Below, one piece after another: positions 8,440-25,283 of a DNA stretch of 64,000 nucleotides. Positions within the stretch are counted from its first letter, which is position 1. Every line of letters starts with the position of its first letter. Source of the stretch: an uncultured Clostridia bacterium (lineage in GTDB: Bacteria; Bacillota; Clostridia; Christensenellales; CAG-314); NCBI GenBank assembly GCA_947625185.1, contig CANQNJ010000002.1, forward strand, positions 3,267 to 67,266. The letters are read 5' to 3'. The notes beneath the pieces are model-generated. The model searched no databases. It was not told the DNA's origin and saw only the letters and a list, made by a program, of their open reading frames with translations. The position numbers and the translations under genes are program-made.

Positions 8440-11091
8440 TTACCACTCTAACGTCATTCCGACGATAACGAAATTATTTCCCTTCGCACCGTTCTTTTCA
8501 AACTTCAGCGTGTTCGACGCTTCGGTCAAATCCAACGTGACGTCTATGGCACTCGTAAGTTTTCCGTCCCAAGTCTTATCGCCTTTTTCCTCGCTATACT
8601 CTTTGCCGTTTACCGAAAATTGAACCATCGTCGCATCGGAATAAGGAATGATCTTAAAAGAGATTTTCTTTATCTGATGCACGGTAGTAAAGTCAATGGA
8701 GCCGGGGCTGGAGGCCTTACCGGGGTAGAAGCCAATACCTTTACCGTCACGCACGGTCTTTCCGTTCGTTGCAAGCATTGTAAGAATTTCCGTTTGATCG
8801 GGAGTCCAAACGTTAATGTGAGATGAAACCATATCGGTTTTGGGAAGGGAAACGGTATAGTAGGTATTACTGCAAACTGTGTCTGCTGTTAATCCATCTG
8901 CCCAATCATAAGTAATCGAGCTTGTTCCCGTTGCTTCCGTTTCCAAAGTCATGCCGACGATAACGAAATTATTTCCCTTCGTACCGTTCTTTTCAAACTT
9001 CAACGTGTTCGACGCTTCGGTCAAATCCAACGTGACGTCTATGGCACTCGTAAGTTTTCCGTCCCAAGTCTTATCGCCTTTTTCCTCGCTATACTCTTTG
9101 CCGTTTACCGAAAATTGAACCATCGTCGCATCGGAATAAGGAATGATCTTAAAAGAGATTTTCTTTATCTGATGCACGGTAGTAAAGTCAATGGAGCCGG
9201 GGCTGGAGGCCTTACCGGGGTAGAAGCCAATACCTTTACCGTCACGCACGGTCTTTCCGTTCGTTGCAAGCATTGTAAGAATTTCCGTTTGATCGGGAGT
9301 CCAAACGTTAATGTGAGATGAAACCATATCGGTTTTGGGAAGGGAAACGGTATAGTAGGTATTGCTGCAAACTGTGTCTGCCGTTAATCCATCCGTCCAA
9401 TCATAAACCGCTTTAATCGCCTTTTGTTCTTCCGTGAGAGTAAGCGTAATCTCGTTGGATGTAACGTCACCGCACTTTACGGATATTTTCACTTCGCCTG
9501 CCGAAATGGTTTTAACGGTAGCTTTGACCGTATCGCCAGATACTGTTGCCTTTGTTTCATCCGAGCTTATCCACTCAGCATTTTCAAAAACAGCACTTGC
9601 GGGAGTTATGCTCTTAACGGTTATCTCAACGGAATAAGGAAGGATGACCTCTGTTTTCTCTGCCTCAATTTCTATTGCTTGGAGAGCGGGGAATGTGCAG
9701 GATAAAATGACATTTTCAACCGCACCCTTGTCATTGCTGTAAATATCGTCCTCTTTGGTGAAATTGATGTGGAAAAGTACGGTACAGCCATCCAGCGCAC
9801 CATCGCCATTTTTTACATTAAATTTCCCAAATGCACTCGTGGAAAAGTCACAAGTCAATTTTTTGCTCTTGTCTGTATTAGAAACGGTAAACGCATAACG
9901 TGCATTTGCAAGCGTTGATCCTGCGTCTACCACGCCGCGCACATAGTAAAGCACTCCGCTATCATCGGCAATAAGATTTCCTTTTTCATCCAATTTGGTG
10001 ATAGCTTCATCCACGGTGAGCGGATCTTCTTCCGTCGTTCCGTGGGTGCTTCCCTCAACATTTATCGTCACGGATGCAGACTTTGTAGTCCCGGCGGCGG
10101 TAGCTGTAATTATCGTGCTACCACTCTTGCCCGTGAGTCGAATCGTACACGTCGGGCCAAAATCCTGCACGGTAGCGACAGATGTATCGGAGCTGTTCCA
10201 ATCTACATCTTGTGAAGCCTTATCGGGAGAAATGGTTGCTTTTATGCCCATGGTATTGTTTTCGATGGGCAATAAGTTCAATTCCTGTGGCGTATTCAAC
10301 GTGATGGATTCAACATCTGCAAAAGAAATTTGAACGTCCACAATGCTCGGGGTAAACTTTGCTCCCGTGGGGCTTGCACTTGCGGGAAGATACGAGCATT
10401 GATATTTGCTATAATACAATTCGATGAAGCCCTTGATAATAATGGTTGCACCGTCAAGCGCACCGTCTTTTTCAGCGGGTTTATCCGTAACGGAACTATC
10501 TATCTTCGCTTGGCAAGTGACGACCTTCTCGCCCGTTCCAAGCGTAAACTTCCATTCATGATATTGTGTGTCTATTGTAGAACCTGCGTTTACAACACCT
10601 TGAATGTAGTAGCCGTCTTTATTGGTGGGATTTACAACTTTCCCGTTGCCCGCCTCGTCCATCAAAGCGATTGCCTCTTCGGGAGTGAGGGGGTTATCTT
10701 GCGTTTTACCTTTGTCTACCGTTTGGTGTCCCGGGCACTTGCTTGCGCACACAGGATCTGTGCAGGTCGCGTCGGTGCATTTTCCGCAAGTAGGACATTT
10801 ATGTCCGCAAACATGCGGTGTGGGCTCGGGTGTGAGTTGGGGGATTTCCACCGGTTTGGAAATTTCGTTTTTGCCGTCTTTGTCCGAGAACAGCTTGCCG
10901 CAAACATCGCATTTCCAATATGCTTCGTAGCCTGCCTCTTGCAATGTGGCATCCTTTTGGGCTACTGCCGTGAGCGTGTGACCGTTCTTTTCACATTCGT
11001 CCTGCGGTTGGCACGCCGCAATGACGGATACAAACGTGAACAACATTGCCACAACAAGCAACAACGCCATCAATTTTTTTGTTTTTGTCAT
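8440..11091 (-). CDS. large surface lipoprotein with Cys-rich N-terminal region, two Big_2-like Ig domains and two copies of a 155-aa C-terminal domain
   Basis: Start set at ATG 11091 (AAGGAGAAAAAAAAC-ATG). Signal peptide MTKTKKLMALLLVVAMLFTFVSVIAAC with a lipobox Cys. Segments such as ISPDKASQDVDWNSSDTSVATV and ENAEWISSDETKATVSG resemble Big_2. Confidence 0.8.
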   Translation of the reverse strand: MTKTKKLMALLLVVAMLFTFVSVIAACQPQDECEKNGHTLTAVAQKDATLQEAGYEAYWKCDVCGKLFSDKDGKNEISKPVEIPQLTPEPTPHVCGHKCPTCGKCTDATCTDPVCASKCPGHQTVDKGKTQDNPLTPEEAIALMDEAGNGKVVNPTNKDGYYIQGVVNAGSTIDTQYHEWKFTLGTGEKVVTCQAKIDSSVTDKPAEKDGALDGATIIIKGFIELYYSKYQCSYLPASASPTGAKFTPSIVDVQISFADVESITLNTPQELNLLPIENNTMGIKATISPDKASQDVDWNSSDTSVATVQDFGPTCTIRLTGKSGSTIITATAAGTTKSASVTINVEGSTHGTTEEDPLTVDEAITKLDEKGNLIADDSGVLYYVRGVVDAGSTLANARYAFTVSNTDKSKKLTCDFSTSAFGKFNVKNGDGALDGCTVLFHINFTKEDDIYSNDKGAVENVILSCTFPALQAIEIEAEKTEVILPYSVEITVKSITPASAVFENAEWISSDETKATVSGDTVKATVKTISAGEVKISVKCGDVTSNEITLTLTEEQKAIKAVYDWTDGLTADTVCSNTYYTVSLPKTDMVSSHINVWTPDQTEILTMLATNGKTVRDGKGIGFYPGKASSPGSIDFTTVHQIKKISFKIIPYSDATMVQFSVNGKEYSEEKGDKTWDGKLTSAIDVTLDLTEASNTLKFEKNGTKGNNFVIVGMTLETEATGTSSITYDWADGLTADTVCSNTYYTVSLPKTDMVSSHINVWTPDQTEILTMLATNGKTVRDGKGIGFYPGKASSPGSIDFTTVHQIKKISFKIIPYSDATMVQFSVNGKEYSEEKGDKTWDGKLTSAIDVTLDLTEASNTLKFEKNGAKGNNFVIVGMTLEW
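8446..9405. repeat. tandem duplication: two near-identical 465-bp units (8446-8910 and 8941-9405, period 495 bp) inside the lipoprotein gene
   Basis: The antisense shadow ORFs 8620..8826 and 9115..9321 are identical. The protein copies differ at only 2 residues (A/T twice), plus a few synonymous changes. Confidence 0.9.
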
Positions 11092-11290
11092 GTTTTTTTT
11101 CTCCTTATAAATATTTAGAGCAAAATTATACCGATTGCCCCGCTCGGTTTTGTGCTGTTGAGCCTCGTCATGAGAGGAGTGTTCGGCACGGCAAAACTTG
11201 TTTGCCGTACCAAACCGAAGTAATTTGTTCGCCGTCACATAGTTTGAAGAGTATTTGCGCGCAATAAGATGAACAATCTGCAATGGATTT

Positions 11291-11504: not shown

Positions 11505-12410
11505 TTATGCAAACATTTTGCCGAGTTTGTTCATCATTTGCACCTTGTATTCCAACATACTGTGAGCGTACCGTTTGAGCGTTACAGTCGGGTTTGAGTG
11601 ACCGAGCAGTTCCGCAAGTGTTTTGACGTCCATTCCGCATTCCAGAGCGCGGGTGGCAAAGGTGTGTCGCAGGGAGTGAAAGCCTTTATGCGGAATTTTG
11701 AGTTTGTTCAATATAAGGCTGAAACTCTCTTGGTAAGATCGCATTGATACAGGGCGTCCGTTACCTTCTATTACATATTTTGTCGTGCGCGCCTTGTACA
11801 GTTCCTTGAACAAAGGCAGTAACTGTTTTGGGAACGGAATGGCGCGCAGAGAGTTTGCCGTTTTGGGCGCGTCCTCCATTCGCTCACCGTTGAGATAGTA
11901 ACAGGTCTTTTCCACCGTGAGCGTGCAAGCGTCCATATTCACGTTGTTCCACTCCAAGGCGAGCAATTCGCCCAGCCGTAAGCCCGTGTACAGGCAGATT
12001 ATTATGCCGTAGAACTTCAACTTTTTACCGCTTTTTATATGCGCCTCTATTTGCTTTTGCTCCAATACGGAAAAACAATCTACCTTTTTCTCCGCCGATC
12101 TTGGGCGACAAATTTTGTTCGCCTCGTATGTGGCAACGTGACCTAATATGTGCGCCGTTTTAAGTGAGTTTTGCAACACGGAGATAGTTACGTTTACCGT
12201 GCTTGCGGATAACGGTTTGCCTATGCTTGGTGCGAGCAGGTCGGTTACAAATTGCTGTAACACGGATAATGTTAATTCGGACAATTCGTATTCGCCCAAA
12301 CGCGGTATAATGCGCGCTACCGCTTGCGTGTAGGTGTTGCAAGTACGCGCCTTGCATGATGTTTTTACATAGTTGTTCAGCCAGATTTCCAGCCATTGAT
12401 GGTACTTCAT
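11505..12410 (-). CDS. tyrosine site-specific recombinase (phage integrase family)
   Basis: 301 aa. YTGLRLGELLALEWNNV (catalytic Arg box) and HSLRHTFATRALECGMDVKTLAELLGHSNPTVTLKRYAHS (H-x-x-R ... H ... Y). AAAGGAG RBS. Confidence 0.85.
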   Translation of the reverse strand: MKYHQWLEIWLNNYVKTSCKARTCNTYTQAVARIIPRLGEYELSELTLSVLQQFVTDLLAPSIGKPLSASTVNVTISVLQNSLKTAHILGHVATYEANKICRPRSAEKKVDCFSVLEQKQIEAHIKSGKKLKFYGIIICLYTGLRLGELLALEWNNVNMDACTLTVEKTCYYLNGERMEDAPKTANSLRAIPFPKQLLPLFKELYKARTTKYVIEGNGRPVSMRSYQESFSLILNKLKIPHKGFHSLRHTFATRALECGMDVKTLAELLGHSNPTVTLKRYAHSMLEYKVQMMNKLGKMFA

Positions 12411-12652: not shown

Positions 12653-12724
12653 TTAATTTGTCAGCATCCACTTGGCGTACATGCCGTACCCGCGCGTCGG
12701 GTCGTTGACAAACACATGAGTAAC
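12653..12724. repeat. direct repeat A: orphan copy of the last 23 codons plus stop of spoIVB (att-like island boundary)
   Basis: 72 bp, identical to 23741-23812 except for one synonymous G/A difference (12664 vs 23752). Encodes VTHVFVNDPTRGYGMYAKWMLTN*. Confidence 0.9.
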
Positions 12725-12969
12725 TGTCAATAAGTTATAAACAAATTAAAAAAAAATATTAAAATACGACAAAACAACTTATGAGTCGTATCAACGCTAA
12801 TGCAAAACCAGACCCATACTATTATATCACAGCAGTACGAAATTATATTCTCCTTCGGACATCATCACCACCATAAGTATCACATATTTCTGGGATTTCA
12901 TAAACACCGAAAGGTTATAACTCTTGTAGGCACTATTTTGTACGTCAAAATAGCGCATTTTACGAAACC

Positions 12970-14109
12970 TTATTTTTTCGTATCTAATATTTTTTGTACG
13001 CGCGTTTGAACGAATGCCTCGATGATTTTCAAACGGTAGACAGGTAAATTATACTTAGGATGCTTCTCAAACTTGAAGTTAATCAGTTTGCGCAGCTGCT
13101 CCCTTTGCCTATCCGATAAAAATTCGTTGACCAATGCATCATAAGATACACCTTCAAAAGCCGGCGTGCGAGTCTGCGCGTACTTGTCTATTTCCAGCAA
13201 ATCCTCTTCCATCGCATAGTTGAACAACGACAAGCCGTTATCAAATATCGGAGCCAATTCTATCGGCTTATTTGTTGCGTTATCGACTAACAAGCCGAAA
13301 TTTCCGAAATGCCTATCGGTATTGCAAATAAGAGCGTCAAAAATCATCATATCGGCGAAGCTATCGTAAAAACTTTCGCCAAGAGATTTCAAATACTCCA
13401 CCGTTTTCGTCAATGTGCAATTCGGTAAAAATCTGTGGATCGGAACATACGATGTGTTTATGTCCGTAAATAACTCGCAAGTAGAACATAGTTGTCTTTT
13501 CCATTTGGACAGACCGTATGCGACGTGCTTGATCCCCATTCTTTCGGCAATTTGCGCGGCGTAAAATTCGGAATATGGTTCGTTGCCTGCATTAGCAGCG
13601 CCCGATGTTCCACCCTTGTAAAGATAAATTTTTTTGTTTAGCCTGCGCCAGCATTTTCTCAGCGTGCCGTTCGTGGTATATTCCGGCGATGAAGTAAAAC
13701 CCTTGCGAGTATTGCTGCCATAGCCTGTATATGCTATCAACGCCAGCGTGCGAGCAAAACTGTTTTCGTAAAGGTTGTAGTCCGCAAATTTGCCTGCGAA
13801 CCCCTCCTCGACAATCCAATAGCTGTCGTTAAGAGAAAGCCCTTTACTCAATCTTATAATTCCAAGCGTATCGTTCGCGGAAAGTCCACTCTTCGAGAGA
13901 ATCTGATCGACGAACTCTCTGTTTTTTGGTATTACACGCGAGGACAACCATTTTGCAAGGCCATCGGGGGTGGGCGTTAACCCAATCGGCAACAAATGTT
14001 TCAACTCATCGTTTATCCAGTCAATATTGTAAACAATCTCCCCCAAACTTGTTCTGTCCATATAGAACCTTAATAGATTGTTATCATATTGTTTGAGTTC
14101 AAAAACCAT
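12970..14109 (-). CDS. HipA C-terminal domain kinase-like protein (orphan; no adjacent HTH partner)
   Basis: 379 aa. ICNTDRHFGNFGLLVDN matches the HipA-type catalytic D-x-H-x-x-N loop. AAGGAGG RBS. Confidence 0.6.
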   Translation of the reverse strand: MVFELKQYDNNLLRFYMDRTSLGEIVYNIDWINDELKHLLPIGLTPTPDGLAKWLSSRVIPKNREFVDQILSKSGLSANDTLGIIRLSKGLSLNDSYWIVEEGFAGKFADYNLYENSFARTLALIAYTGYGSNTRKGFTSSPEYTTNGTLRKCWRRLNKKIYLYKGGTSGAANAGNEPYSEFYAAQIAERMGIKHVAYGLSKWKRQLCSTCELFTDINTSYVPIHRFLPNCTLTKTVEYLKSLGESFYDSFADMMIFDALICNTDRHFGNFGLLVDNATNKPIELAPIFDNGLSLFNYAMEEDLLEIDKYAQTRTPAFEGVSYDALVNEFLSDRQREQLRKLINFKFEKHPKYNLPVYRLKIIEAFVQTRVQKILDTKK

Positions 14110-14144
14110 TGAATGCCTCCTTGTTAAAATGGAACCTTGTAGTA

Positions 14145-14173
14145 ATTATAGCATGTATAGCAGAAAATTTCAA
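14145..14173 (-). promoter_or_regulatory. candidate promoter TTGAAA-17-TGcTATAAT for the orphan hipA-like gene
   Basis: The reverse complement reads TTGAAAttttctgctatacatgcTATAAT. Confidence 0.4.
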
Positions 14174-14265
14174 CTGCTCATAAGATTAATTTGATCCGTC
14201 GTCTGTTTGGCGTTTCTAATACGCAATTCTTGGAAAAATAATTTGAATTTTGTGTTGTAAACTAA

Positions 14266-14295
14266 GGAAAAAGTGCCTATACGAAATAGACACTT
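14266..14295 (-). terminator. terminator closing the four-gene ATPase/RloB/KAP operon
   Basis: On the minus strand: AAGTGTCTATttcgtATAGGCACTT followed by TTTTT. Confidence 0.5.
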
Positions 14296-14344
14296 AATAC
14301 TCTGATAAGAACGATAAAATTTAACTTCAGCTTTTTTATATTTT

Positions 14345-17017
14345 CTAACTCACAAGCTTTTTAACATAGCTCTTAAACATACTTTTCCGCCGAGAATTCT
14401 CTTTCCACAAAAGATTATATATATGCATTTTAATTTCGTAATCAGTCAATAATTCATCAAATTGACCATTACACAAATACCTTTGTATGCTATTACTATC
14501 TTCCAATGAATCAATACGTTCGATTTTAAGAATATAATTTTTCCTTTGCTCCATATCTTTACATTGTTCCATAAATGCTTTTAGTAATTCAATGCGCTGC
14601 CCCCAAGTATTGTAAATAAGTAATTGCTGCAGGGACAAACGTTCGAACTTTCGAGCAATGTACACCGCCTCTAAAAACTGCTGACAATTTGACATATAGT
14701 CAAACATTTGGTCTACGGTAACATAAACTAATATATATTCATCAATATCTATCGTTGGATCAAACGAAAATTTATTTTCATATAATGTGCGTCCAACAAT
14801 ATACTGCCAATATTGGTGCCTATTGCGTAATTCAATCGTTATTTGGGGCGGCATGGCTCCACAATAATCGTTATCTATGATAAGATCAATTAATTTATTG
14901 CTCCCAATATTTAATTGGTCTAATAAAGCGATAAACTTCTTAATATATTGGAGACAAGCAGTTCTATCAGTTGTATTTGCAATTTTTTTAATTATCTTTT
15001 CCTCGATCAAAGTAGGCATATCTGATGTAATATCCGCAAATTGAATGAGTTCATCAAATGAAGTAAATTGACAAGTATCTTCATATGATTGTGCAATTTC
15101 TTCCTTTTGAGCCGATTTTAATACATGGTAATCGACTTTTTTAAACGGAATTTTCTTAAACAGCTCTTTCGTATTTTGAGAAGTGTTTTCAAACAAAAAT
15201 TTTGCCAACAAATATGCATCTGTTGCACTTCGGATCAAAAACTGAAAAATTTCACCTGCTTGTGATGGGCTCTGAATCAATCGTGTTATTAAACCGAGAT
15301 CCAGGCAATCCTCTAACGTTATTATTCTTGCTTCCTCTTCAGTTAATATAGCATACTGCGCATCATACAAGAATTTATAAGCCCGTCTTATTTCAATCGA
15401 TTGTTGAATTAGACCAATTCTATATTTAGTAAACAATGATTTGTGTCGACTGAACAACTCATTCATCATTTTACTGTCAAATATACTTACATCATATATA
15501 CGCGTTTCAAAATTATTTAACGTGATGCAATATTGGAGAAAAGTACTATAATATTTCTGTTCATAAAGACTATTGAGTATATTATCATTTATGTTTAAAT
15601 ACCTTTCATAACCTTTTAGGCATTCGCAATACTCCTTACTGATCGGCTCGTCAAGAGAATTTAGATAATTTTCTATTTCCTCATAAATTTCACTTCGGTT
15701 TTTTGATATAAACTTGAAAATTGTATCGTCAACAATTTTATTCAAGGACATCAAAGAAAGTACACCTCGCAACATTTCATCGGTCGGGGCCACAACGGCC
15801 GTATGACGTTTAATCATATCGACTAATTTAACTTTTTGCATCTCAGTCAACTCGGTTTTTGCCTTGTCAGCCAAAGCAACCAACAAAGAATTTGTACATT
15901 TACTTGGCTCAAGCAAATCAAATATTATATTCACATCACTTAAAGCTAATACTTCTTCGCTACTAAGGCAAGGAACGTTGCTATATATAAACATATTCTT
16001 AAACAACAGAATATCATTGCCAAATTTTTGTGTCAATTCAAACCGACATTGAGTGAAATATTCATTAAAATTTGTGGTCTTTTTATACAACTCCTCGGAA
16101 TATTTTTTTAGTAGGTCACACTTACTTGAAAATGCGTAGCTGTAAACTCTAAGTAATGTTTCAACAACGCTTTCGGTATTTTCTTTACTCCAAGGATAAT
16201 TAACAACCATCGTATTAATTATTTGATCGGGATATTTTCTATAACAATATTCTAAAAGGCGTTCATCTTGTAAAATTACAACAGGAAAAGTCTTTTTAAG
16301 TTGCATTAGCTGGTTCATGCAGGCATCGGCAACTTTACATTCACCATCTTCAGAGAAAGACTGCTCTATAATGTTAATAAATTCATTTTCTTCACAACTA
16401 TTTCCAAGCAATAATACATCTTCTAATTTTCGCTCGCCTACATTCTTGATGTAACTACCATTCGGATAACTGAAAAAATACTGTTTGAAATTATCGTCTA
16501 TTATTCTATCGATAATCATACCACTGATTTCTTGCACAAAATCATCCGCTAATTCGAATTCACCAGTGAATACTTCTTTAATGTACTTAACAAGTTTTCC
16601 TATCTTTTCTTCACGTCCGGACGTAGATTCAATTCTCAACAAATTGCCATTATCTACTATTTGCTCAAACTTCTTATCATTATTTACGAGCTTGTAATAA
16701 TTTTGTTTATACTCGCTTTTAAGATATGCAACAGCACAGCATGTTATCATACTGGGGTTTCCCTGCTGATTTTTATACTGTCTTGAACAAATGGTCTTAT
16801 ATAAAACGATAGCATCATTGAGACGATGTTTTAAATCACGAATTGTCAACTTACGACCTTGAATAAGATATGAAAATTGTCCATATATAGAATCAGGTAT
16901 GTTTTTATCTTGTTCGCCTACGGTAAACATTTTTCGTATCTCTTGCTCTTTCTCTTTGAGCAATTCTTGGAGTATTTTTGAAAAATCATCAATATGCACT
17001 GCTTTTAAGTCAAGCAT
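14345..17017 (-). CDS. 890-aa predicted all-helical protein; an in-frame continuation of the upstream KAP NTPase ORF
   Basis: Long AT-rich ORF with no motif I recognise and no RBS. It is in the same frame as 17072..18013 (both start coordinates are 1 mod 3), separated only by a TAA plus 18 sense codons. Confidence 0.6.
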   Translation of the reverse strand: MLDLKAVHIDDFSKILQELLKEKEQEIRKMFTVGEQDKNIPDSIYGQFSYLIQGRKLTIRDLKHRLNDAIVLYKTICSRQYKNQQGNPSMITCCAVAYLKSEYKQNYYKLVNNDKKFEQIVDNGNLLRIESTSGREEKIGKLVKYIKEVFTGEFELADDFVQEISGMIIDRIIDDNFKQYFFSYPNGSYIKNVGERKLEDVLLLGNSCEENEFINIIEQSFSEDGECKVADACMNQLMQLKKTFPVVILQDERLLEYCYRKYPDQIINTMVVNYPWSKENTESVVETLLRVYSYAFSSKCDLLKKYSEELYKKTTNFNEYFTQCRFELTQKFGNDILLFKNMFIYSNVPCLSSEEVLALSDVNIIFDLLEPSKCTNSLLVALADKAKTELTEMQKVKLVDMIKRHTAVVAPTDEMLRGVLSLMSLNKIVDDTIFKFISKNRSEIYEEIENYLNSLDEPISKEYCECLKGYERYLNINDNILNSLYEQKYYSTFLQYCITLNNFETRIYDVSIFDSKMMNELFSRHKSLFTKYRIGLIQQSIEIRRAYKFLYDAQYAILTEEEARIITLEDCLDLGLITRLIQSPSQAGEIFQFLIRSATDAYLLAKFLFENTSQNTKELFKKIPFKKVDYHVLKSAQKEEIAQSYEDTCQFTSFDELIQFADITSDMPTLIEEKIIKKIANTTDRTACLQYIKKFIALLDQLNIGSNKLIDLIIDNDYCGAMPPQITIELRNRHQYWQYIVGRTLYENKFSFDPTIDIDEYILVYVTVDQMFDYMSNCQQFLEAVYIARKFERLSLQQLLIYNTWGQRIELLKAFMEQCKDMEQRKNYILKIERIDSLEDSNSIQRYLCNGQFDELLTDYEIKMHIYNLLWKENSRRKSMFKSYVKKLVS

Positions 17018-17071
17018 ATAATCAAAAAATTTGCTGTAATTTTCGCTTTTACCTGCATTGTCACCATTAGT

Positions 17072-17965
17072 TTAAGCAGTATTACTGCGTTTATCAATGT
17101 CAGGTCTAATTGCTACGATAAAGTGGATTTTTTTATTATCACATGCATTGGAAAGTCTATAAAGTACTTTTATAAAATTATCTATAAGATTCTCCTTCTC
17201 GGCTTTGTCCATTTCTATTCTATCTAAGTCTTCAATCAAAATTATTCTATTTTTACTTTTATTTTTGCAAATTGTATCCACTATTTCTTGATAAATCGAA
17301 AATATATCGCTACTATCTAGTTTTCTATGTCCCTCACTTTTCCATGTGGAAAATGCAACGTTATATTTTTTTAGACCGATAACCAAAAATATAATTGACA
17401 TAGCATAAAATAACGGATATATATCTATCTTTAATAAAAATTGCCATCCATTCCAAATAGTTTCTAAATACGGGATATCCACTGTTGTCATATGGAAAAT
17501 CAATCCAATGACAAAAGATAACAAGGCTAACGATAAAAGCCCCCAGATCTTTTTAGAACTAAAAGTTATGGATAGCAAGCCACTATTACCGCTAAGTCTT
17601 TTATTTACGTATTTTACTAAGTCTCTGTCTTCACTGTTTTTCGCAAGTTGAAATAAAAACGACTTTTCTAACCGTAATTCTTGAGATTCTACATCCTCAT
17701 TGTCTTGTTGTTGCAACCCATCCCACATATTAATTTTAATGGTTTTACCGTACTTATCAGTGTTGGCGGTCAACATACCTACCATGCTTGATTTTCCATA
17801 GCCATAATCGCCAATTAACCCAATCATTTTTGCGCCCGAGTCTATAGCATCGTCCAACGCATCCCTTTGAGCCTGAAAACCAATGTGATCTTGATTTTCT
17901 TCATTGATCTCATGATTAACATACGAATAGCTACTCTTCTGACCATTCTTTTGTTTTTTTACCAT
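17072..17965 (-). CDS. KAP-family P-loop NTPase, N-terminal module with TM helices inserted in the NTPase domain
   Basis: Walker A GDYGYGKSS, then two hydrophobic helices (IWGLLSLALLSFVIGLIF and IYPLFYAMSIIFLVIGL), then Walker B RIILIEDLDR. This matches the KAP architecture. Start moved to ATG 17965, 5 nt after GGAGG. Confidence 0.7.
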   Translation of the reverse strand: MVKKQKNGQKSSYSYVNHEINEENQDHIGFQAQRDALDDAIDSGAKMIGLIGDYGYGKSSMVGMLTANTDKYGKTIKINMWDGLQQQDNEDVESQELRLEKSFLFQLAKNSEDRDLVKYVNKRLSGNSGLLSITFSSKKIWGLLSLALLSFVIGLIFHMTTVDIPYLETIWNGWQFLLKIDIYPLFYAMSIIFLVIGLKKYNVAFSTWKSEGHRKLDSSDIFSIYQEIVDTICKNKSKNRIILIEDLDRIEMDKAEKENLIDNFIKVLYRLSNACDNKKIHFIVAIRPDIDKRSNTA

Positions 17966-18009
17966 TCTATCCTCCGTACAATAATTGTTGAAACTGTTTT
18001 TTTTAGAAT

Positions 18010-18639
18010 TCACCTCTCAATTATTTTATTGATATTGCAAATCCACTTAGAATTGCCAGACTCCAACGCATTGAATAATTGCAAAACGTTGCTACTTGGC
18101 ACAAAGGTGTATGTATCTTTCAACCGCACCAAACGTCGTTTCATTTCCGCGTAATTTTGCGATGTAATTTTATTTACGATTGCCTTGCGTTGCTGTTCAG
18201 TTGCGTTATAATCTTTCACGCCCGTCAATCGCTCCACCGTTGCAGCGTTATCAGTTTTGCTATTGGAGATCAATTTGACCGCATCGAAATGCAGCAACAC
18301 CACTTGCAACGTACAAGGATTGACGAAGAATACAACTTGATCCGCTACACCTTTATCGTGAAATTTATCTATCTTTTGTTTCATTGCAACAAACTGGTTA
18401 TACGGATACTTTTCGGTATCGCAAAAAATCACAATCAACTTGTAGTTGTTTGTTTTATAGTAATATGAGTACATCGCAGAGATATTGCTTATAGATTTGG
18501 CATCTTTTGTATGAACCGAAAAATTTTTGCTCCACACACCGCAAGCTTTCAATCGATTGATATAGTCGCATTCCTCTGCACCCTCACATACGATAAGAAC
18601 ATTATTCTCATTGCTCGCGTTAGGTAATTTGTTCGCCAT
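18010..18639 (-). CDS. RloB-like / TOPRIM-like protein (AbiLii-like)
   Basis: N-terminal NVLIVCEGAEECDYINRL resembles the RloB signature (hhhhCEGxxxExxY), and VIFCDTEKY is a later acidic patch. Start at ATG 18639, 1 nt after the stop of the ATPase gene. The stop overlaps the long-ORF GTG of the next gene. Confidence 0.6.
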   Translation of the reverse strand: MANKLPNASNENNVLIVCEGAEECDYINRLKACGVWSKNFSVHTKDAKSISNISAMYSYYYKTNNYKLIVIFCDTEKYPYNQFVAMKQKIDKFHDKGVADQVVFFVNPCTLQVVLLHFDAVKLISNSKTDNAATVERLTGVKDYNATEQQRKAIVNKITSQNYAEMKRRLVRLKDTYTFVPSSNVLQLFNALESGNSKWICNINKIIER

Positions 18640-18640
18640 T

Positions 18641-19936
18641 TCAATTACCCCCGTTACTTCTTGTGTCACTCAAAAGTATGGATATCATATCGGGTTCCGG
18701 TAGCGCCCCCAACACCCCCGAATTATATCTATCAAACACATCTGTTTCCGAACGAATTTTATCTTCTTTTGCAGTAAACTCCGCTAATGAATATAGGTAT
18801 TCATTTTCGCTATCTTTGGATGCAAACCAAATTTGATCTTTACGGAATAATTTTTTACAATCTAACAATGTCGCATCGTGCGCTGTAAATATCAACTGCG
18901 CTTTTACATTCAATTCATTGTTAAACAATGCAACAATAGCTCGTGTAAGTCTGAAATGCAAACTGCTGTCCAATGCATCTACTACAAGAGTTTTTCCTTC
19001 ATCTAATGCTTCTACAATATAACTCGCAATTGACACAATCTTTTTCGTCCCGGTTGAATCAAAAGAAAAACTTTGCACCGATTTACCCTTATGAACAGAT
19101 GTCAACCGCAACATATCTCCAATAGCTACTTTTAATTTGAGAACCTCCTCTCTTGGATTGGGGGCTTCTTCCTCATTGGTAATACCTATTGCTCCGGACT
19201 TTGAACTATCTGCATAATATAGAAAATCATCTATATCCAAATCTGCAAGACGAATAAGCTCCACGGTTTTTTCTTTAATTTTTTCATTATTCTTCAAAAC
19301 ATCAATTGTTCTGTTGATTGGTATATTATTCATATCAAGTACCGTGATACTATCTGCGAATTTACGCAAAATATCTTTATATTCGCCTATCTTAGAAAGA
19401 ATAGAAGTATTTACTGTATATATTAGAATATTATCATTTGACACAAGACTTAAAATTTTGCTTAATTCATCATCCTCATGAAAACGATAAATACCATTTA
19501 TAACATCTCGTATAAACAATTCTTTAATTGAAATGTTCTTATGAGATTCAAACGTCAGCTCTTTTAAGCACTCATATACAAAGCCTCTTTTATAACCGTT
19601 CAAAAGCGTAGAATCATATTTAAAATCATATTCAAATACTCTATCGCATTCCATGAATGTTACGCCAAATGAGCATACTTTGTCATTTCTGAATATATTT
19701 GACGGCACCTCGGCAACTAAACCAAGTAACACATTCTTTATGGAGTTAATTGCACGAACAAGGCAAGTCTTGCCGGAATTGTTTGCACCGTAAACACAAA
19801 GGGATTTCAACACGTTAAAACCCATATTTTCATACACGTTATCTGCAAATCTCTTTATCCGCATATCTGCAATCAAAGATAATTCCACATCATTAGAGTA
19901 AACCAAAAAATTGTCAACACGGACTTTTATTAGCAT
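18641..19936 (-). CDS. AAA_15/AAA_21-type (ABC-like) ATPase (AbiLi/RloA-like)
   Basis: Walker A GANNSGKT, signature-like FDSTGTKKIVSIASYI, Walker B TLVVDALDSSLH and H-loop FTAHD. Confidence 0.8.
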   Translation of the reverse strand: MLIKVRVDNFLVYSNDVELSLIADMRIKRFADNVYENMGFNVLKSLCVYGANNSGKTCLVRAINSIKNVLLGLVAEVPSNIFRNDKVCSFGVTFMECDRVFEYDFKYDSTLLNGYKRGFVYECLKELTFESHKNISIKELFIRDVINGIYRFHEDDELSKILSLVSNDNILIYTVNTSILSKIGEYKDILRKFADSITVLDMNNIPINRTIDVLKNNEKIKEKTVELIRLADLDIDDFLYYADSSKSGAIGITNEEEAPNPREEVLKLKVAIGDMLRLTSVHKGKSVQSFSFDSTGTKKIVSIASYIVEALDEGKTLVVDALDSSLHFRLTRAIVALFNNELNVKAQLIFTAHDATLLDCKKLFRKDQIWFASKDSENEYLYSLAEFTAKEDKIRSETDVFDRYNSGVLGALPEPDMISILLSDTRSNGGN

Positions 19937-19990
19937 ATCTTTACTTGCTCCTTTTTATTTTCAATATATAGTATAGCATAGCAATATTTT

Positions 19991-20011
19991 TTGTGCAAGT
20001 TTTTTGCACAA
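19991..20011. promoter_or_regulatory. perfect 8-bp-arm palindrome TTGTGCAA-n5-TTGCACAA in the divergent promoter region
   Basis: Seen between the ATPase operon start (19936) and the SpeE-like gene start (20174). Possibly an operator. Confidence 0.3.
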
Positions 20012-20173
20012 TTTCCACAAACAAATTATGCCAACTTTATCATCAAATAAAACCACTATTCTAAAATTAACTTTATAATTTTTTTACGATACATAAACCA
20101 ATTTGTGTAGCGTCAGTATACCTACAATAACTCTTTATTATTTTATGCAAATGATACGAGAGGAGAATGTGTT

Positions 20174-21022
20174 TTGTTTTACTATGAAAAAGAACCTATA
20201 AGCATTTATTTGCAAAATTTGGAAAAACTTGCGACAATAAATTCTTCCAAACAAACCATTGAACTGTTTAACCATATTTACCTAGGTAAAGTGTTAATAA
20301 TCAACGGTGAGATACAACACATTGAAAAGTACCAATCCCTATATCATGAAATGCTTGTTCATTTGCCAATAGCTTTTATCCCAAATGTTAAAAATGTCCT
20401 TATAATAGGGGGAGGGTCGTTGTTTGCCGCCTTTGAAGCATTAAAATACTCTTCTGTTGAAAGTGTTACTTTGTGCGACCATGATCATTATGTTTTAGAT
20501 TTAATGGCAAAGTATTATTCACACGCGAAGTATGTTCTTCAGTCCCCAAAGTTTATGTTAATAGAAAAAGATGCTCATGATTTTTTGATTGAAGATTTCG
20601 GTACATATGATTTAATAATTAATGACTGCTTTAATTTAGCGATGGAGGGCAAGAGAAAAAAAATTTCATATTATAATATTTTATCTTCGCATCTAACTCC
20701 GACAGGAGCATGTTCCGATATTACATATAGGCATATTTTCGATGAAGCGACTATGCAACTTACATTGGAGCAGGTGTCTCGCGAATCGTATAGGGCTTAT
20801 TCATTGGTGACTGTACCAGAATATCCCGGAATTTTACATCTCCAAGTAATATGGGGGAAGTCTGATAAAATTCGCTCAGACATTTCCATACCTGTAAACG
20901 ATATACAGCGAGATGGTATTATGAAGAAAAAGCCTTTTAATACAGAGTTCTATATGCCCTCATGCTTGCCTTACTATTTACATATTCCAAACTATGTAAA
21001 AAAACTATTTAATAAAATTTGA
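20174..21022 (+). CDS. spermidine synthase-like (SpeE-fold) protein, divergent
   Basis: YHEMLVHLPIAFIPNVKNVLIIGGGSLFAAFEALKY...VTLCDHD...YDLIINDCFN parallels SpeE, but GGGDGG is replaced by GGGSLF and DSTDP by NDCFN. TTG start 7 nt after GAGAGGAGAA. Confidence 0.6.
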   Translation: MFYYEKEPISIYLQNLEKLATINSSKQTIELFNHIYLGKVLIINGEIQHIEKYQSLYHEMLVHLPIAFIPNVKNVLIIGGGSLFAAFEALKYSSVESVTLCDHDHYVLDLMAKYYSHAKYVLQSPKFMLIEKDAHDFLIEDFGTYDLIINDCFNLAMEGKRKKISYYNILSSHLTPTGACSDITYRHIFDEATMQLTLEQVSRESYRAYSLVTVPEYPGILHLQVIWGKSDKIRSDISIPVNDIQRDGIMKKKPFNTEFYMPSCLPYYLHIPNYVKKLFNKI

Positions 21023-21862
21023 GGTAAAACTTAGTTCTTCTGAGGGACACTTGATTGCATCATAGAATACCTCAACATTCTTCCAAAGTGGAGACCTTAA
21101 AATTTTGTCGTTACATCTTGTCAGCTCCTCTTTATTGTTAATATATCCATATTGAACAATAAATGGTTCTTTCGGGTGGTTTGTTGCTGCCCAAGGAGAA
21201 CCCAGAAGCGAACAATTTGACCGATCATTATTTCTATAGAGCTGAATTTTATTGATTTTTATATAAGGAATACTTTTATAATTATCTGTCTCTAAATTGA
21301 TGCCTGCCGCAAGAAACATACTTCGAGCAATATGGCTATGCTGCGTGGGACAATAAGACAACGTACCCTTTAACCTTACTGGACATCCAAAAAAATCCTC
21401 ATTAAAGAAATGTGGGATTTCCTTTAAAAGATATTGGGTGGGAATTACTCCTAAAATCCCTTCTCCGATATATCCATATCGAGCATAAATTCCTACTAAG
21501 GTTTCTCCATTAAGTGACCCTGTGCGGATTGTGTCATCGGACCCAGCATAGAATTCCAATTTACTATATTGCTGTGAAGTGATCTTCCCTTCAAAGTCAT
21601 AAAGTGTATTCCACCTTTTTCCGTTTTCAAACGGATTGCGGGGAAACAACTGTATATACGGCGACAGAAGACCATCTAATGCCAATGAAGCGCCTTCACC
21701 GATCATTTTTTGATCTATTCCCCTAAACCAAAGATCCATAGGACCCTCGTAAGTGTTTTCCTTAAAGTATTTTTCATATATTTTTTTCCCAAAATATGAT
21801 CCCAAGGCTCCCACAAAAGTTTGGCCGGCGGCTATGAGCAAAGAAAGAATATTTGAATCCAT
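21005..21862 (-). CDS. hypothetical protein with an N-terminal TM helix
   Basis: 285 aa counted from ATG 21862 (GGAGA RBS). No recognisable motif. Its 3' end overlaps the 3' end of the convergent SpeE-like gene by 18 bp. Confidence 0.5.
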   Translation of the reverse strand: MDSNILSLLIAAGQTFVGALGSYFGKKIYEKYFKENTYEGPMDLWFRGIDQKMIGEGASLALDGLLSPYIQLFPRNPFENGKRWNTLYDFEGKITSQQYSKLEFYAGSDDTIRTGSLNGETLVGIYARYGYIGEGILGVIPTQYLLKEIPHFFNEDFFGCPVRLKGTLSYCPTQHSHIARSMFLAAGINLETDNYKSIPYIKINKIQLYRNNDRSNCSLLGSPWAATNHPKEPFIVQYGYINNKEELTRCNDKILRSPLWKNVEVFYDAIKCPSEELSFTSNFIK

Positions 21863-21953
21863 ATCATCTCCCAATAATAATAAAGAGTTATTGTAATTAT
21901 TTTACCATATTTTTCCGTGCTTTTCAACCTAATATGACAAAAAATTACATCCC

Positions 21954-23042
21954 TCAAATAACATTTTTGATCAATTCTACAATATCTGCCGTCTTCCACT
22001 TTGCGAGTCCGACATAGGCTGCAAGGTCGAGAAGATCTTTTTCTGTGGGGGTTGGGTTCCCCATCACGGTCATTTCATGTTCGGACTTGTTAATAGTTTT
22101 CGTCAAATCGTATGCAGGAGATAATCTGTATCCGTTGAGAGTCTCACCGTATACAAAAGAAAAATTTTTTCCGTGGTCGTCCTTGTTGCCGTACAACACA
22201 TTGAACGCCATGCGAGCAAAAGCTTCGTATAGGTCGCTCTTATCTGCGCAGATGTTTTGAACCACTTGAAAGAGATGCACATAGTCCAGGTTGGGAATTC
22301 TATGCGTCGTTTCCAAAATGGACGACAAAGAAACGACATGTATTCTCTTGCCAGCTTTGCGATCAAAACGTTTTGCACCAAAATAACCCGCACAACGCTT
22401 TGACGGAAACAATTTGAATTCGTTTACATCCAGTCCACACCTTTGAGCTGCGGAATTTGCTTCAAATTCGGCAAGCCCCGCATCCGGTGGGTCGATTCGA
22501 CACGGAAATTTGACGATCCAATCTTCGCCATCCACTTTTATGTGCGCTTTGGGACGCGCTCCACCACTTGAACCGCCCAACAAAAACAAGCTATCCAACT
22601 CGTCAATCGGCTTTGCGTCATTCAAAACAGCGTTTGCTTCTTCCGCAAGCTCTTCCAAGTCGAAGTGGGAGTCATCTGCTTCCGTCGCTTGCGTCGGTTC
22701 ATAGGTCAAGCCACCAAGTCCGTTTTCGCCAATGAGAGACAGCTTGGTGAGCGGATTGAGCCTATCGTAGTTTACGCCCTTTTGCGCAAGCATACGCTTG
22801 ACCAACAACTCACCCCATCCATCGGGGAGCGAGTCGTGAAAAACGCCGTATAGCCCTTCAAAATTATACTTTCGGTTAATGTAAATTTTGTCGGCAATGG
22901 GGAGCGAAAAAGGGGATATGGAAAACCCGTTTCGCTGCCACTCGTCGCTGTATTGAAAGGCAATTCCTTCGTTCGTCATTGCAAGATAGCCGACCGTTCG
23001 ACCGTTATATTTAACAATGGATTTAGTAACTTCACCGACCAT
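21954..23042 (-). CDS. hipA: HipA family serine/threonine kinase toxin
   Basis: GGSSGGARPKAHI (P-loop) and YGNKDDHGKNFSF (catalytic D-x-H-x-K-N). Start set at MVGEVTK (23042), overlapping the hipB stop by 11 nt. Confidence 0.85.
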   Translation of the reverse strand: MVGEVTKSIVKYNGRTVGYLAMTNEGIAFQYSDEWQRNGFSISPFSLPIADKIYINRKYNFEGLYGVFHDSLPDGWGELLVKRMLAQKGVNYDRLNPLTKLSLIGENGLGGLTYEPTQATEADDSHFDLEELAEEANAVLNDAKPIDELDSLFLLGGSSGGARPKAHIKVDGEDWIVKFPCRIDPPDAGLAEFEANSAAQRCGLDVNEFKLFPSKRCAGYFGAKRFDRKAGKRIHVVSLSSILETTHRIPNLDYVHLFQVVQNICADKSDLYEAFARMAFNVLYGNKDDHGKNFSFVYGETLNGYRLSPAYDLTKTINKSEHEMTVMGNPTPTEKDLLDLAAYVGLAKWKTADIVELIKNVI

Positions 23043-23325
23043 TTTTGTAATCCTTGACGCTGGTAATAATCTCGTGTTTGAAAAGTTCTTCAAAATCCGC
23101 AAGACAACCAATGGCATTTGCAAGCTTGACAAGCGAATGTAACGAAATCTCCCCCGTCTGTTCAAACCTGCGAATTGAAGAATAAGTAACCCCCGAACAT
23201 TTCGCAAGCTTTACCTGAGAAAGTTTCATCTCCTTTCGTCTCATTCTGAACCGTGCCGCCAAATTGTCTAACGTTGTTTTTTCTGTCAGCGTGGGGATAA
23301 ATTCCCCTATATCAAATTTGTTCAT
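23032..23325 (-). CDS. hipB: XRE/HipB-type HTH antitoxin
   Basis: 97 aa. LSQVKLAKCSGVTYSSIRRFEQTGEISLHSLVKLANAIG is an HTH_3 motif. It lies immediately upstream of hipA and overlaps it. Confidence 0.8.
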   Translation of the reverse strand: MNKFDIGEFIPTLTEKTTLDNLAARFRMRRKEMKLSQVKLAKCSGVTYSSIRRFEQTGEISLHSLVKLANAIGCLADFEELFKHEIITSVKDYKNGR

Positions 23326-23740: not shown

Positions 23741-23812
23741 TTAATTTGTCAACATCCACTTGGCGTACATGCCGTACCCGCGCGTCGGGTCGTTGACAAA
23801 CACATGAGTAAC
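23741..23812. repeat. direct repeat B (the functional 3' end of spoIVB)
   Basis: 72 bp, matching 12653-12724 at 71 of 72 positions. Confidence 0.9.
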
Positions 23813-24832
23813 CGCGCCGACAAGTTTGCCGTTCTGCACTATCGGACTGCCGCTCATCCCCTGAACGATACCGCCCGTTTTTTCAAGCAAAGTCTTGTCC
23901 GTAACGTGCAGCACCATCCCCTTGTCGTCACGCGCAGTTTGAGGGGACGCCTTTACGATCTCAATATCGTAGGCGCGACGCTCATTGTCATCAAGAGTAC
24001 AATAAATTTGCGCCTTACCCGGTCTGACCTCATTTATATCCGCAACGGGGATGGTTTCCGTACAATATTGCGGAATTGTGTTGAAGCTTCCGAATGCGCC
24101 GTATTTATTGTTCGCATAAATATTGCCGATACGTTTGTCAAAACAAAATCCGCCTTTCAACTCGCCGGCGGCGCCCTTTTGCCCTTTCTCTATACCGTCT
24201 ATCGTACACCCGAAAACGCCGCCGTTTCTACAAGATATTATTGCTCCCTTAGAGTCGCATATGGGATGTCCGAGGCTGCCGAAGTTAAGATTTTTACGCA
24301 CATAAGTCAACGTGCCGATACCGCTGGACGAATCACGAGTCCACAGCCCGAGCCTGTACTGCCCTGCCGTGAGATCTTTTTGAGGTAAAATGGTAGATTC
24401 GTTGACGATCCCGTCCCGCATATATTTTATGGTTATTTGTTTTCCCTCGGATTGCCGCGCGATCTCCGACAGTTTTGCCGAGTTGTATATTTTTCTGCCG
24501 TCAAGTTCCACTATTACGTCATTTATTTCTATCCCGGAGTCCAATGCAGGGCAGCAGAGATTGCCGTCTTCGCAAATAAACTCATTCAAACCTATCACCG
24601 TCACTCCATCTCCGTCGATCGTGATCCCAAGCGGATATCCTCCAAGGTACACCTCTTCGTCTATCTTCGCGACAGTCTTGCCGCCGAACAACTCTCCGAC
24701 GTCATCCAAAAATTCGCCTATATCTTCACCGCCGAAAGCGCTTGCCGTCTGCACGACGCGATCGTCGGCAGGAAATAGGAAAAACGCCTGTAACAACAAA
24801 ATAACGAGCAGTATCAAAAGGGATTTTTTCAT
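23741..24832 (-). CDS. spoIVB: SpoIVB peptidase (S55) with PDZ domain
   Basis: GIVQGMSGSPIVQNGKLVGAVTHVFVNDPTRGYG (catalytic Ser context), PDZ-like GIEINDVIVELDG, and a position downstream of recN as in Bacillus. Start set at ATG 24832 (MKKSLL). Confidence 0.85.
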   Translation of the reverse strand: MKKSLLILLVILLLQAFFLFPADDRVVQTASAFGGEDIGEFLDDVGELFGGKTVAKIDEEVYLGGYPLGITIDGDGVTVIGLNEFICEDGNLCCPALDSGIEINDVIVELDGRKIYNSAKLSEIARQSEGKQITIKYMRDGIVNESTILPQKDLTAGQYRLGLWTRDSSSGIGTLTYVRKNLNFGSLGHPICDSKGAIISCRNGGVFGCTIDGIEKGQKGAAGELKGGFCFDKRIGNIYANNKYGAFGSFNTIPQYCTETIPVADINEVRPGKAQIYCTLDDNERRAYDIEIVKASPQTARDDKGMVLHVTDKTLLEKTGGIVQGMSGSPIVQNGKLVGAVTHVFVNDPTRGYGMYAKWMLTN

Positions 24833-25283
24833 ATTCACCTCAAATTACTAAGCGTAGTTTGTGAAATATAAAGCCTATTATACATTGCCGAGCGCGCTCC
24901 GAAACGTTTGCCGCGCAGCCTTCCACAAACAGCAATCTCGCCTCTGCAAAGACTCGCCGTCAAAATCCGCCGACGTAAAAATTATCATCGGATCGTTGCT
25001 TTTGGGGAACTCAAATGCGTGTTCTGTCCGCCACGGAGAAATAACATACGCTTATATGCGATTTCGATAACTCTCTGACAAAAATGGCAATTTCAGTGTA
25101 TAAGTTCCGTATCATTCCGTTTTGCAAAAGCTGTGACCGGCCGTAAACATTCTCGCGCCATAGCTATTTTGGGGCAGGGAGGTCTCCGTCGGCAATTGAT
25201 AAATATATTTACCTGATTGACAAATATCTTTTCTTGATTTTTGGCAGACCTCGTGTAATAATGAGCAAAAAGGAGTTTACCGT

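Follow-up and report, generated by a model that had tools for sequence, protein, structure and literature searches.

An AbiL pair and a nonsense-interrupted, Tmn-like NTPase gene side by side on a probable mobile cassette of an uncultured Clostridia bacterium

We analysed a 64,000-nucleotide stretch of DNA (the window) from an uncultured Clostridia bacterium (GTDB lineage Bacteria; Bacillota; Clostridia; Christensenellales; CAG-314; GenBank assembly GCA_947625185.1, contig CANQNJ010000002.1, positions 3,267 to 67,266 of the forward strand), focusing on a group of tightly packed open reading frames (ORFs) on its minus strand. A sequence-only reading of this locus had proposed an undescribed four-gene system, in which an ATPase–TOPRIM pair is coupled to a KAP nucleoside triphosphatase (NTPase) and to a separate 890-aa protein. 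We find it likely that the locus instead combines two anti-phage modules, independent of each other and each of a known kind: the two-gene AbiL system and a Tmn-like NTPase, which lie side by side on a mobile cassette. The two modules do not form an obligate or conserved system. As judged from the sequence comparisons below, the 890-aa 'gene 4' corresponds to the last two-thirds of the NTPase, so that the locus has three genes and the window copy of the last one is a nonsense allele.

The third and fourth ORFs are in the same frame, and the sole stop codon between them is a TAA (17074–17072); read through from the ATG at 17965, they form one ORF of 1206 codons. A 99%-identical copy of the locus (L001) has CAA at the position of this TAA and encodes a 1206-aa protein. 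Intact alleles of the NTPase (P0001, P0105, P0107 and P0109) are 1206 or 1209 aa long; P0001, for example, has 1206 aa, five differences from the fused query (the two window ORFs joined) and a glutamine (CAA) at the stop position. When the fused query was compared with a set of 5.8 billion proteins, 103 relatives were found, nearly all of about 1170–1300 aa and aligned over 98–100% of the query. The 890-aa part by itself matched 205 proteins among 1.84 billion cluster representatives (E ≤ 1e-3), and in full-length relatives it aligns starting at about residue 300–345 of proteins of about 1200 aa. Because the frame is shared, the intact alleles have Q298 and the 890-aa part aligns within longer proteins, we regard the two ORFs as one gene; a separate 890-aa protein, as had been claimed, is no longer called for.

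The first two genes, on the evidence of their profile matches and conservation, are a standard AbiL pair (an RloAB-type ABC ATPase and a TOPRIM-like protein), and on this point the sequence-only reading was right. The AbiLi protein matches the PADLOC AbiLi model (7e-66) and Pfam AAA_21 (2.9e-17; 64.1 bits against a cut-off of 27). The match of the AbiLii protein to its own PADLOC model is weak (1e-7) and it has no Pfam match, RloB included, but 10 out of 15 AbiLii homologues match Pfam RloB and one matches an OLD-like TOPRIM family. The invariant residues of AbiLii include E19, G20, E23 and D74, and its C-terminus stays conserved up to about residue 209. In a census of 80 metagenomic loci with AbiLi relatives (29–78% identity), 74 offered enough sequence to see the next gene, and in 68 of these AbiLi is immediately followed by an AbiLii homologue. 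AbiL was described as a two-component system, AbiLi/AbiLii, of Lactococcus pND861 (Deng et al. 1999). It belongs to the ATPase plus TOPRIM/OLD class, as do PARIS AriAB and Campylobacter RloAB. The window pair is like AbiL in having two translationally coupled genes, for an AAA_21/Rad50-like ABC ATPase and then a RloB/TOPRIM-like protein of about 200 aa, in the match of both proteins to PADLOC models and in the conservation of the pair in relatives; it is unlike the rest of the family in having an alanine for the invariant Walker B glutamate of AbiLi.

The third gene had been named a KAP NTPase, which holds in that the protein is a membrane-inserted, KAP-like NTPase; more exactly, it is of the YobI type. 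The best family is YobI-ATPase (PF20693; 48.4 bits, gathering threshold 27; E 1.3e-12; positions 3–254 of the 363-position profile matched before the stop), which outscores a borderline match to KAP_NTPase (PF07693; 20.3 bits, gathering threshold 20; E 3.7e-4); homologues of the NTPase also carry a precomputed PF20693 assignment. Two membrane-helix-like segments (residues ~138–165 and 176–198) were seen by hydropathy between Walker A and Walker B, and none elsewhere. No family in Pfam, NCBIfam or PADLOC matched the C-terminal part. We built an AlphaFold2 model for P0002, a homologue 52% identical to the window NTPase, from a 67-sequence alignment (mean predicted local distance difference test score, pLDDT, 83.8). 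Its P-loop core is of the alpha/beta type and carries two long helices as insertions (140–160 and 185–202); further on, residues 312–1189 are predicted to be all helical (about 60 helices, pLDDT ~85–94). In Foldseek comparisons with the PDB, the model matched HEAT/ARM/TPR solenoids (CTR9, STAG2, CAND1, importins and Avs3/4) with low template-modelling scores, and its N-terminus matched RFC-type AAA+ proteins.

This architecture is that of Tmn (Gao et al.), a known single-gene defence protein of about 1270 aa with 'no conserved operon architecture'. Tmn forms a decameric membrane complex and has two membrane helices inside its P-loop domain and alpha-solenoid arms; an arm senses a phage protein, after which ATP is burned and Mg2+ is exported, leading to plasmolysis. 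The window NTPase shares with Tmn the Pfam YobI-ATPase domain, the pair of membrane helices inserted between the Walker motifs, an overall size of about 1200 aa that includes a long C-terminal region modelled as an all-alpha solenoid, and a stand-alone gene found in variable, mobile contexts without a conserved operon partner. It differs in its clade, which comprises about 200 gut-Clostridia clusters (at 50% identity) and is known here from sequence and model, and, unlike published Tmn, the window copy is a nonsense pseudogene whose frame is not intact. We class the large protein with the YobI family, as a Tmn-like NTPase from a gut-Clostridia clade of its own and not as Tmn proper, because the PADLOC hidden Markov model (HMM) of Tmn did not match it and a tblastn search of plasmids found no E. 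coli-type Tmn. Searching the 5.8-billion-protein set with a profile (alignment A1) brought back the roughly 100 proteins already seen with the single sequence and no bridge to Tmn, and the sequences of the PDB, also searched by profile, yielded no significant match. The protein also resembles the KAP NTPases found in defence (PifA, QatA and KAP fusions), as a P-loop NTPase with membrane helices that carries a large, functionally uncharacterised region in the same chain. KAP-fusion proteins of gut Bacillota were tested in a recent study (PLoS Biol 2026, PMC13552941), and the proteins described here are like them in their gut Bacillota hosts, mobile islands and nearby recombinases. It differs in its borderline match to KAP_NTPase and in matching the PifA and QatA models no more than marginally, at the N-terminus; eight more remote family members likewise gave only marginal N-terminal PifA/QatA matches in PADLOC and no Tmn match.

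The linkage of the two modules is not conserved. We collected 43 species-representative genome loci with YobI-like relatives (21–49% identity) and their neighbours within 8 kb: none of the 43 has an AbiLi or AbiLii homologue within that distance, and no neighbour cluster recurs in more than 6 out of 42 loci. The closest NTPase homologues (48–52% identity) have an AAA_14/DUF4143 gene or a hydrolase gene as neighbour, not AbiL. Conversely, a YobI-like gene was found in none of the 80 AbiL loci (43 of which had at least 1 kb downstream of AbiLii), and no third gene recurs after AbiLii among them. The trio of AbiLi, AbiLii and NTPase genes was found in one cassette lineage only (L001, L132–L135 and L136; 96–99% identical). 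The proposal of an undescribed system, in which the ATPase–TOPRIM pair is coupled to a KAP gene, had itself named coincidental adjacency and a mapping onto known systems as the outcomes that speak against it, and both are what we observed: the adjacency is confined to one lineage and absent in distant relatives, and the parts are of known kinds.

The cassette comprises the HipA-like, YobI-like, AbiLii and AbiLi genes and recurs as a unit of about 7.5 kb with shared end points; its nucleotide identity to the window is 99.1% in L001, 96.1% in L136 and 95.7% in L132. We consider the cassette mobile by comparison of these copies, because the flank of the L136 cassette differs from that of the window and because the neighbouring core gene is far more diverged (~79–80% identity between the window and L001 or L132) than the cassette itself (96–99%).

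Both modules look disabled in the window. The Walker A motif of AbiLi is intact, but its Walker B motif reads D320-A321 (VVDALD, codons at 18975–18978), whereas DE is found at positions 320–321 in 46 out of 46 non-redundant homologues and in five sister (near-identical) alleles. The change is E321A, by its position a loss of the catalytic Walker B glutamate; thus the motif LVVDALDSSLH, which had been quoted as Walker B, is present to the letter but is a mutated form of an invariant DELD. L001 has D320A, H327Q and F328L in AbiLi instead, and a +1 frameshift in AbiLii that leaves 182 aa rather than 209 and removes the conserved C-terminus. Two 99%-identical copies have thus been hit at adjacent invariant Walker B codons (E321A in the window, D320A in L001, 8029–9956), and their second lesions differ: a nonsense codon in the NTPase gene of the window and the AbiLii frameshift of L001. 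The L132–L136 alleles are intact. Between the window and L001, the numbers of non-synonymous and synonymous differences are 8:8, 3:5 and 5:2 in the defence genes and 1:7 in the HipA-like gene. We infer that both modules decayed independently after transfer.

If the two modules work as their relatives do, the AbiLi ATPase would restrain or sense, with the TOPRIM partner AbiLii as the nuclease effector, by analogy with PARIS and RloAB. In the NTPase, the pair of membrane helices inserted between the Walker motifs anchors the P-loop domain, and an alpha-solenoid arm of about 900 aa follows. By analogy with Tmn, this arm may recognise a phage protein; recognition would then switch the NTPase on, and ATP consumption together with a membrane or ion effect would arrest the infection.

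Several points weigh against reading the locus as two independent modules of known kinds. The PADLOC Tmn HMM was silent (E ≤ 0.01) on the intact allele P0001 and on 11 relatives, and tblastn searches of PLSDB plasmids with the full protein and with its N-terminal 397 aa retrieved no E. coli-type Tmn; the best PLSDB match was an 879-aa hypothetical protein adjoining a type I restriction–modification locus (E 0.02). The kinship with studied Tmn proteins is therefore one of Pfam family and architecture, not of direct sequence similarity, and the anti-phage function of the clade of about 200 clusters, as well as the mechanism given above, is argued from analogy. As for the lesions, when an ABC ATPase has its Walker B glutamate replaced by alanine, as in E321A, hydrolysis is lost but ATP may still bind, so the AbiL module is presumed, on the strength of the sequence, to be disabled. 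Finally, the trio stays intact together across alleles with up to about 8% difference in the NTPase protein, and the tight spacing suggests co-expression, so that a functional interaction specific to this lineage is conceivable, though of low probability.

Such an interaction has been put forward for related systems. In the work of Wu et al. (bioRxiv 10.1101/2022.08.21.504612), AbiL is listed as one of the systems with significant tmn co-occurrence, and the authors offered the hypothesis that it behaves as Gabija, Septu I and PrrC do. The arrangement here is like Tmn–Gabija, Tmn–Septu I and Tmn–PrrC in that a Tmn-type membrane NTPase lies beside a module with an ABC-type ATPase sensor and a nuclease. 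It is unlike the pairs of Wu et al. in that theirs came from many bacterial genomes, with experiments in E. coli and a PADLOC-defined tmn (the published Tmn set is defined by the PADLOC Tmn HMM, with E < 1e-10 and at least 50% coverage), and ours from one cassette lineage. AbiL and the Tmn-like NTPase could be a synergy pair within the cassette lineage, in which the membrane NTPase, triggered by phage, would consume ATP, and AbiLi would sense the drop in ATP and free the AbiLii effector. The published Tmn–Gabija and Tmn–Septu synergy with its described ATP-collapse mechanism, the reported co-occurrence, the probable co-transcription across a 44-nt gap without a terminator-like site and the intact trio in at least three further alleles from different samples are all in its favour. 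We nevertheless consider it unlikely: the adjacency is seen in one 96–99%-identical cassette and is absent from the 43 YobI-like and 80 AbiL loci, defence genes gather in islands whether or not they interact, the protein is not a PADLOC-defined Tmn, and one or both partners have been lost in two alleles. A version of the same idea, that the gut-Clostridia family is a separate YobI-type branch missed by Tmn models and recruited here into a co-transcribed pair with AbiL, seems to us equally unlikely. ATP depletion driven by the NTPase would then trigger the AbiLi/AbiLii switch, and the independent knock-outs in two alleles would be a sign that the pair is costly or autoimmune; if true, the cassette would show the proposed AbiL–Tmn synergy in nature, with its partners physically linked.

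The other two explanations concern the stop codon. That the sequencing or assembly is in error at both the TAA and the Walker B codon, and that the locus of the living organism is intact, is very unlikely. The sister genome is metagenome-assembled and the window contig (68,124 nt) may be so too, and single-base errors occur in such assemblies; but the truncated N-terminal product is known from more than one contig (P0125 on two, P0126 on another, from ENA), which argues against a one-off assembly error, the changes are substitutions rather than homopolymer indels, and the different lesions of L001 (in the neighbouring codon and by frameshift in AbiLii) fit real decay better than random error. 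The same truncated product could be cited for a true split-gene system of four genes, in which a 297-aa NTPase fragment and an 890-aa helical protein are both functional; an ATG (17017) does open the 890-aa ORF, and a few of the representative matches are ~885–950 aa long. To this we give hardly any weight, as the two parts share a frame and are separated by a single C-to-T change from the intact allele, no Shine–Dalgarno-like GGAGG precedes ATG 17017, nearly all of the 205 relatives have the region as residues ~300–1200 of one protein, and the break falls 48 residues past Walker B, inside the PF20693 domain. We rejected recoding of the TAA, along with a split functional protein, on two of these grounds: one C-to-T change explains the TAA, and there is no ribosome-binding site before the downstream ATG. 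Two independent modules, AbiL and the Tmn-like NTPase, thus remain our preferred account of the locus.

Coordinates of the features are collected in Table 1. The four minus-strand ORFs of the initial description (18641–19936, 431 aa; 18010–18669; 17072–18013; and 14345–17017, 890 aa) are present in the window, as are the motifs quoted with them (GANNSGKT, LVVDALDSSLH, FTAHD, LIVCEGAEECDY and IILIEDLDR). The second of these ORFs is a long GTG form, and the real start of AbiLii is the ATG at 18639. The described junctions were likewise all seen: this ATG lies 1 nt from the TGA of AbiLi (18643–18641), the TGA of AbiLii overlaps the GTG that opens the longest form of the third ORF (to 18013), and a GGAGG stands 5' of ATG 17965, the start used by gene callers in the intact allele. 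It is probable that the AbiL pair and the NTPase gene are co-transcribed here, because the gap between AbiLii and the NTPase gene is 44 nt and a terminator-like site was looked for in it and not found.

Table 1. Features of the AbiL–NTPase locus and its cassette (positions in the window)
Feature	Position	Strand	Evidence or remarks
AbiLi, ABC-type (AAA_21) ATPase, 431 aa	18641..19936	-	PADLOC AbiLi, Pfam AAA_21
AbiLii, RloB/TOPRIM-like partner, 209 aa, intact	18010..18639	-	PADLOC AbiLii 1e-7
YobI-family (Tmn-like) transmembrane P-loop NTPase gene, 1206 codons, nonsense-interrupted	14345..17965	-	Genes 3 and 4 merged
N-terminal NTPase part	17075..17965	-	Walker A GDYGYGKS 52–59, Walker B IILIEDLDR 241–249
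In-frame TAA at codon 298; CAA (Gln) in intact alleles	17072..17074	-	
C-terminal part, predicted all-alpha and solenoid-like ('gene 4' plus 18 upstream codons)	14345..17071	-	AlphaFold2, Foldseek
Upstream region common to all cassette alleles	19937..20138	-	Holds palindrome and promoter-like site 19997–19970
Terminator-like hairpin	14271..14295	-	50 nt past NTPase stop; 10-pair stem, 3 G-C pairs, T-rich tail
HipA-like kinase gene, 379 aa	12970..14109	-	Pfam HipA_C 2.4e-7; PADLOC candidate PDC-M03A 6e-21
Cassette with HipA-like, YobI-like, AbiLii and AbiLi genes, ~7.5-kb recurring unit	12653..20150	.	Shared end points

Upstream of AbiLi, the homology between cassettes stops at 20138–20151. A perfect palindrome with 8-bp arms (19991–19998/20004–20011) is found in this region, and a hairpin (14295–14271) at the other end of the locus, where a palindrome and a terminator (about 14266–14295) had been described. 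Promoter-like matches are not enriched in the region (40, compared with 33.8 ± 6.3 in shuffled sequence), so the single promoter proposed for the set is putative. The location in an AT-rich island next to toxin–antitoxin genes was also borne out: the GC content is 31–33% over 14–21 kb and ~45–50% in the flanks, and HipA-like genes flank the locus. One of these is part of the cassette, where it is always 3' of the NTPase gene (the same place in L001, L132, L133 and L136); the opposite end of the island has a second, canonical HipA gene (21954–23207). The cassette's HipA-like gene probably has its own promoter, with a promoter-like site (14173–14145) before it that matches at 11 out of 12 positions and has an extended -10 TG. 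We weighed counting this gene with the operon, which would then have four members, and set that aside, given the terminator-like hairpin in between and its own strong promoter-like site.

The whole island is enclosed by a 72-nt direct repeat (12653–12724 and 23741–23812, 99% identical, spaced by 11,088 nt). Its right-hand copy makes up the 3' end of the spoIVB (Peptidase_S55) gene at 23741–24838, beyond which lies recN, and the repeats look like the attL and attR of an element that has integrated there. Next to the left-hand copy, on its outer side, are a tyrosine integrase gene (11505–12410) and a gene for a 947-aa Big_2 protein; their position outside the repeat and their absence from L001 suggest a second, tandem insertion. 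The 947-aa Big_2-domain ORF (8440–11283) contains two 300-nt direct repeats (8447–8746 and 8942–9241, 98% identical, 495 nt apart), which probably encode repeated Ig-like domains. Another insertion relative to L001, of ~1.9 kb (20139–22047), is situated some 200 bp upstream of AbiLi, between 39-nt inverted repeats (20118–20156/21862–21900, 82% complementary). It contains an ORF with a spermidine-synthase domain (20174–21022, Pfam 7.8e-28) and a convergent 289-aa ORF without a family; no transposase was found in it.

Between the window and the cassette alleles L132 and L136, the NTPase has diverged far more than AbiLi (92–93% amino acid identity, versus 99%). One divergence hotspot is at ~17366–17665 (gene nt 300–600; 83% nucleotide identity), which encodes the two membrane helices, and a second is at the 3' end of the gene; they may result from recombination or diversifying selection. 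Some YobI-like NTPase genes elsewhere have other close neighbours. For example, an AAA_14/DUF4143 ATPase gene lies 24 nt upstream of the YobI-like gene in three contigs (L129–L131, P0002). In L023 and L027, genes for proteins of ~1100 aa and 232 aa precede the NTPase gene by 15 nt, and in L031 a related gene, for a protein of ~990 aa, overlaps the NTPase start by 4 nt.

The analysis removes a false lead, as the locus is not a new four-gene system; it adds a new member, or an unrecognised clade, to known kinds, and the co-occurrence of AbiL with tmn had already been published. A sizeable gut-Clostridia clade of proteins with the Tmn architecture escapes the HMM by which Tmn is defined, so censuses of this type of defence in Bacillota are probably undercounts. 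The intact cassette alleles L132 and L136 offer a ready natural construct for the proposed AbiL–Tmn-type synergy. The different lesions in two near-identical cassettes, for their part, are a small, clean case of the repeated inactivation of horizontally transferred defence genes.

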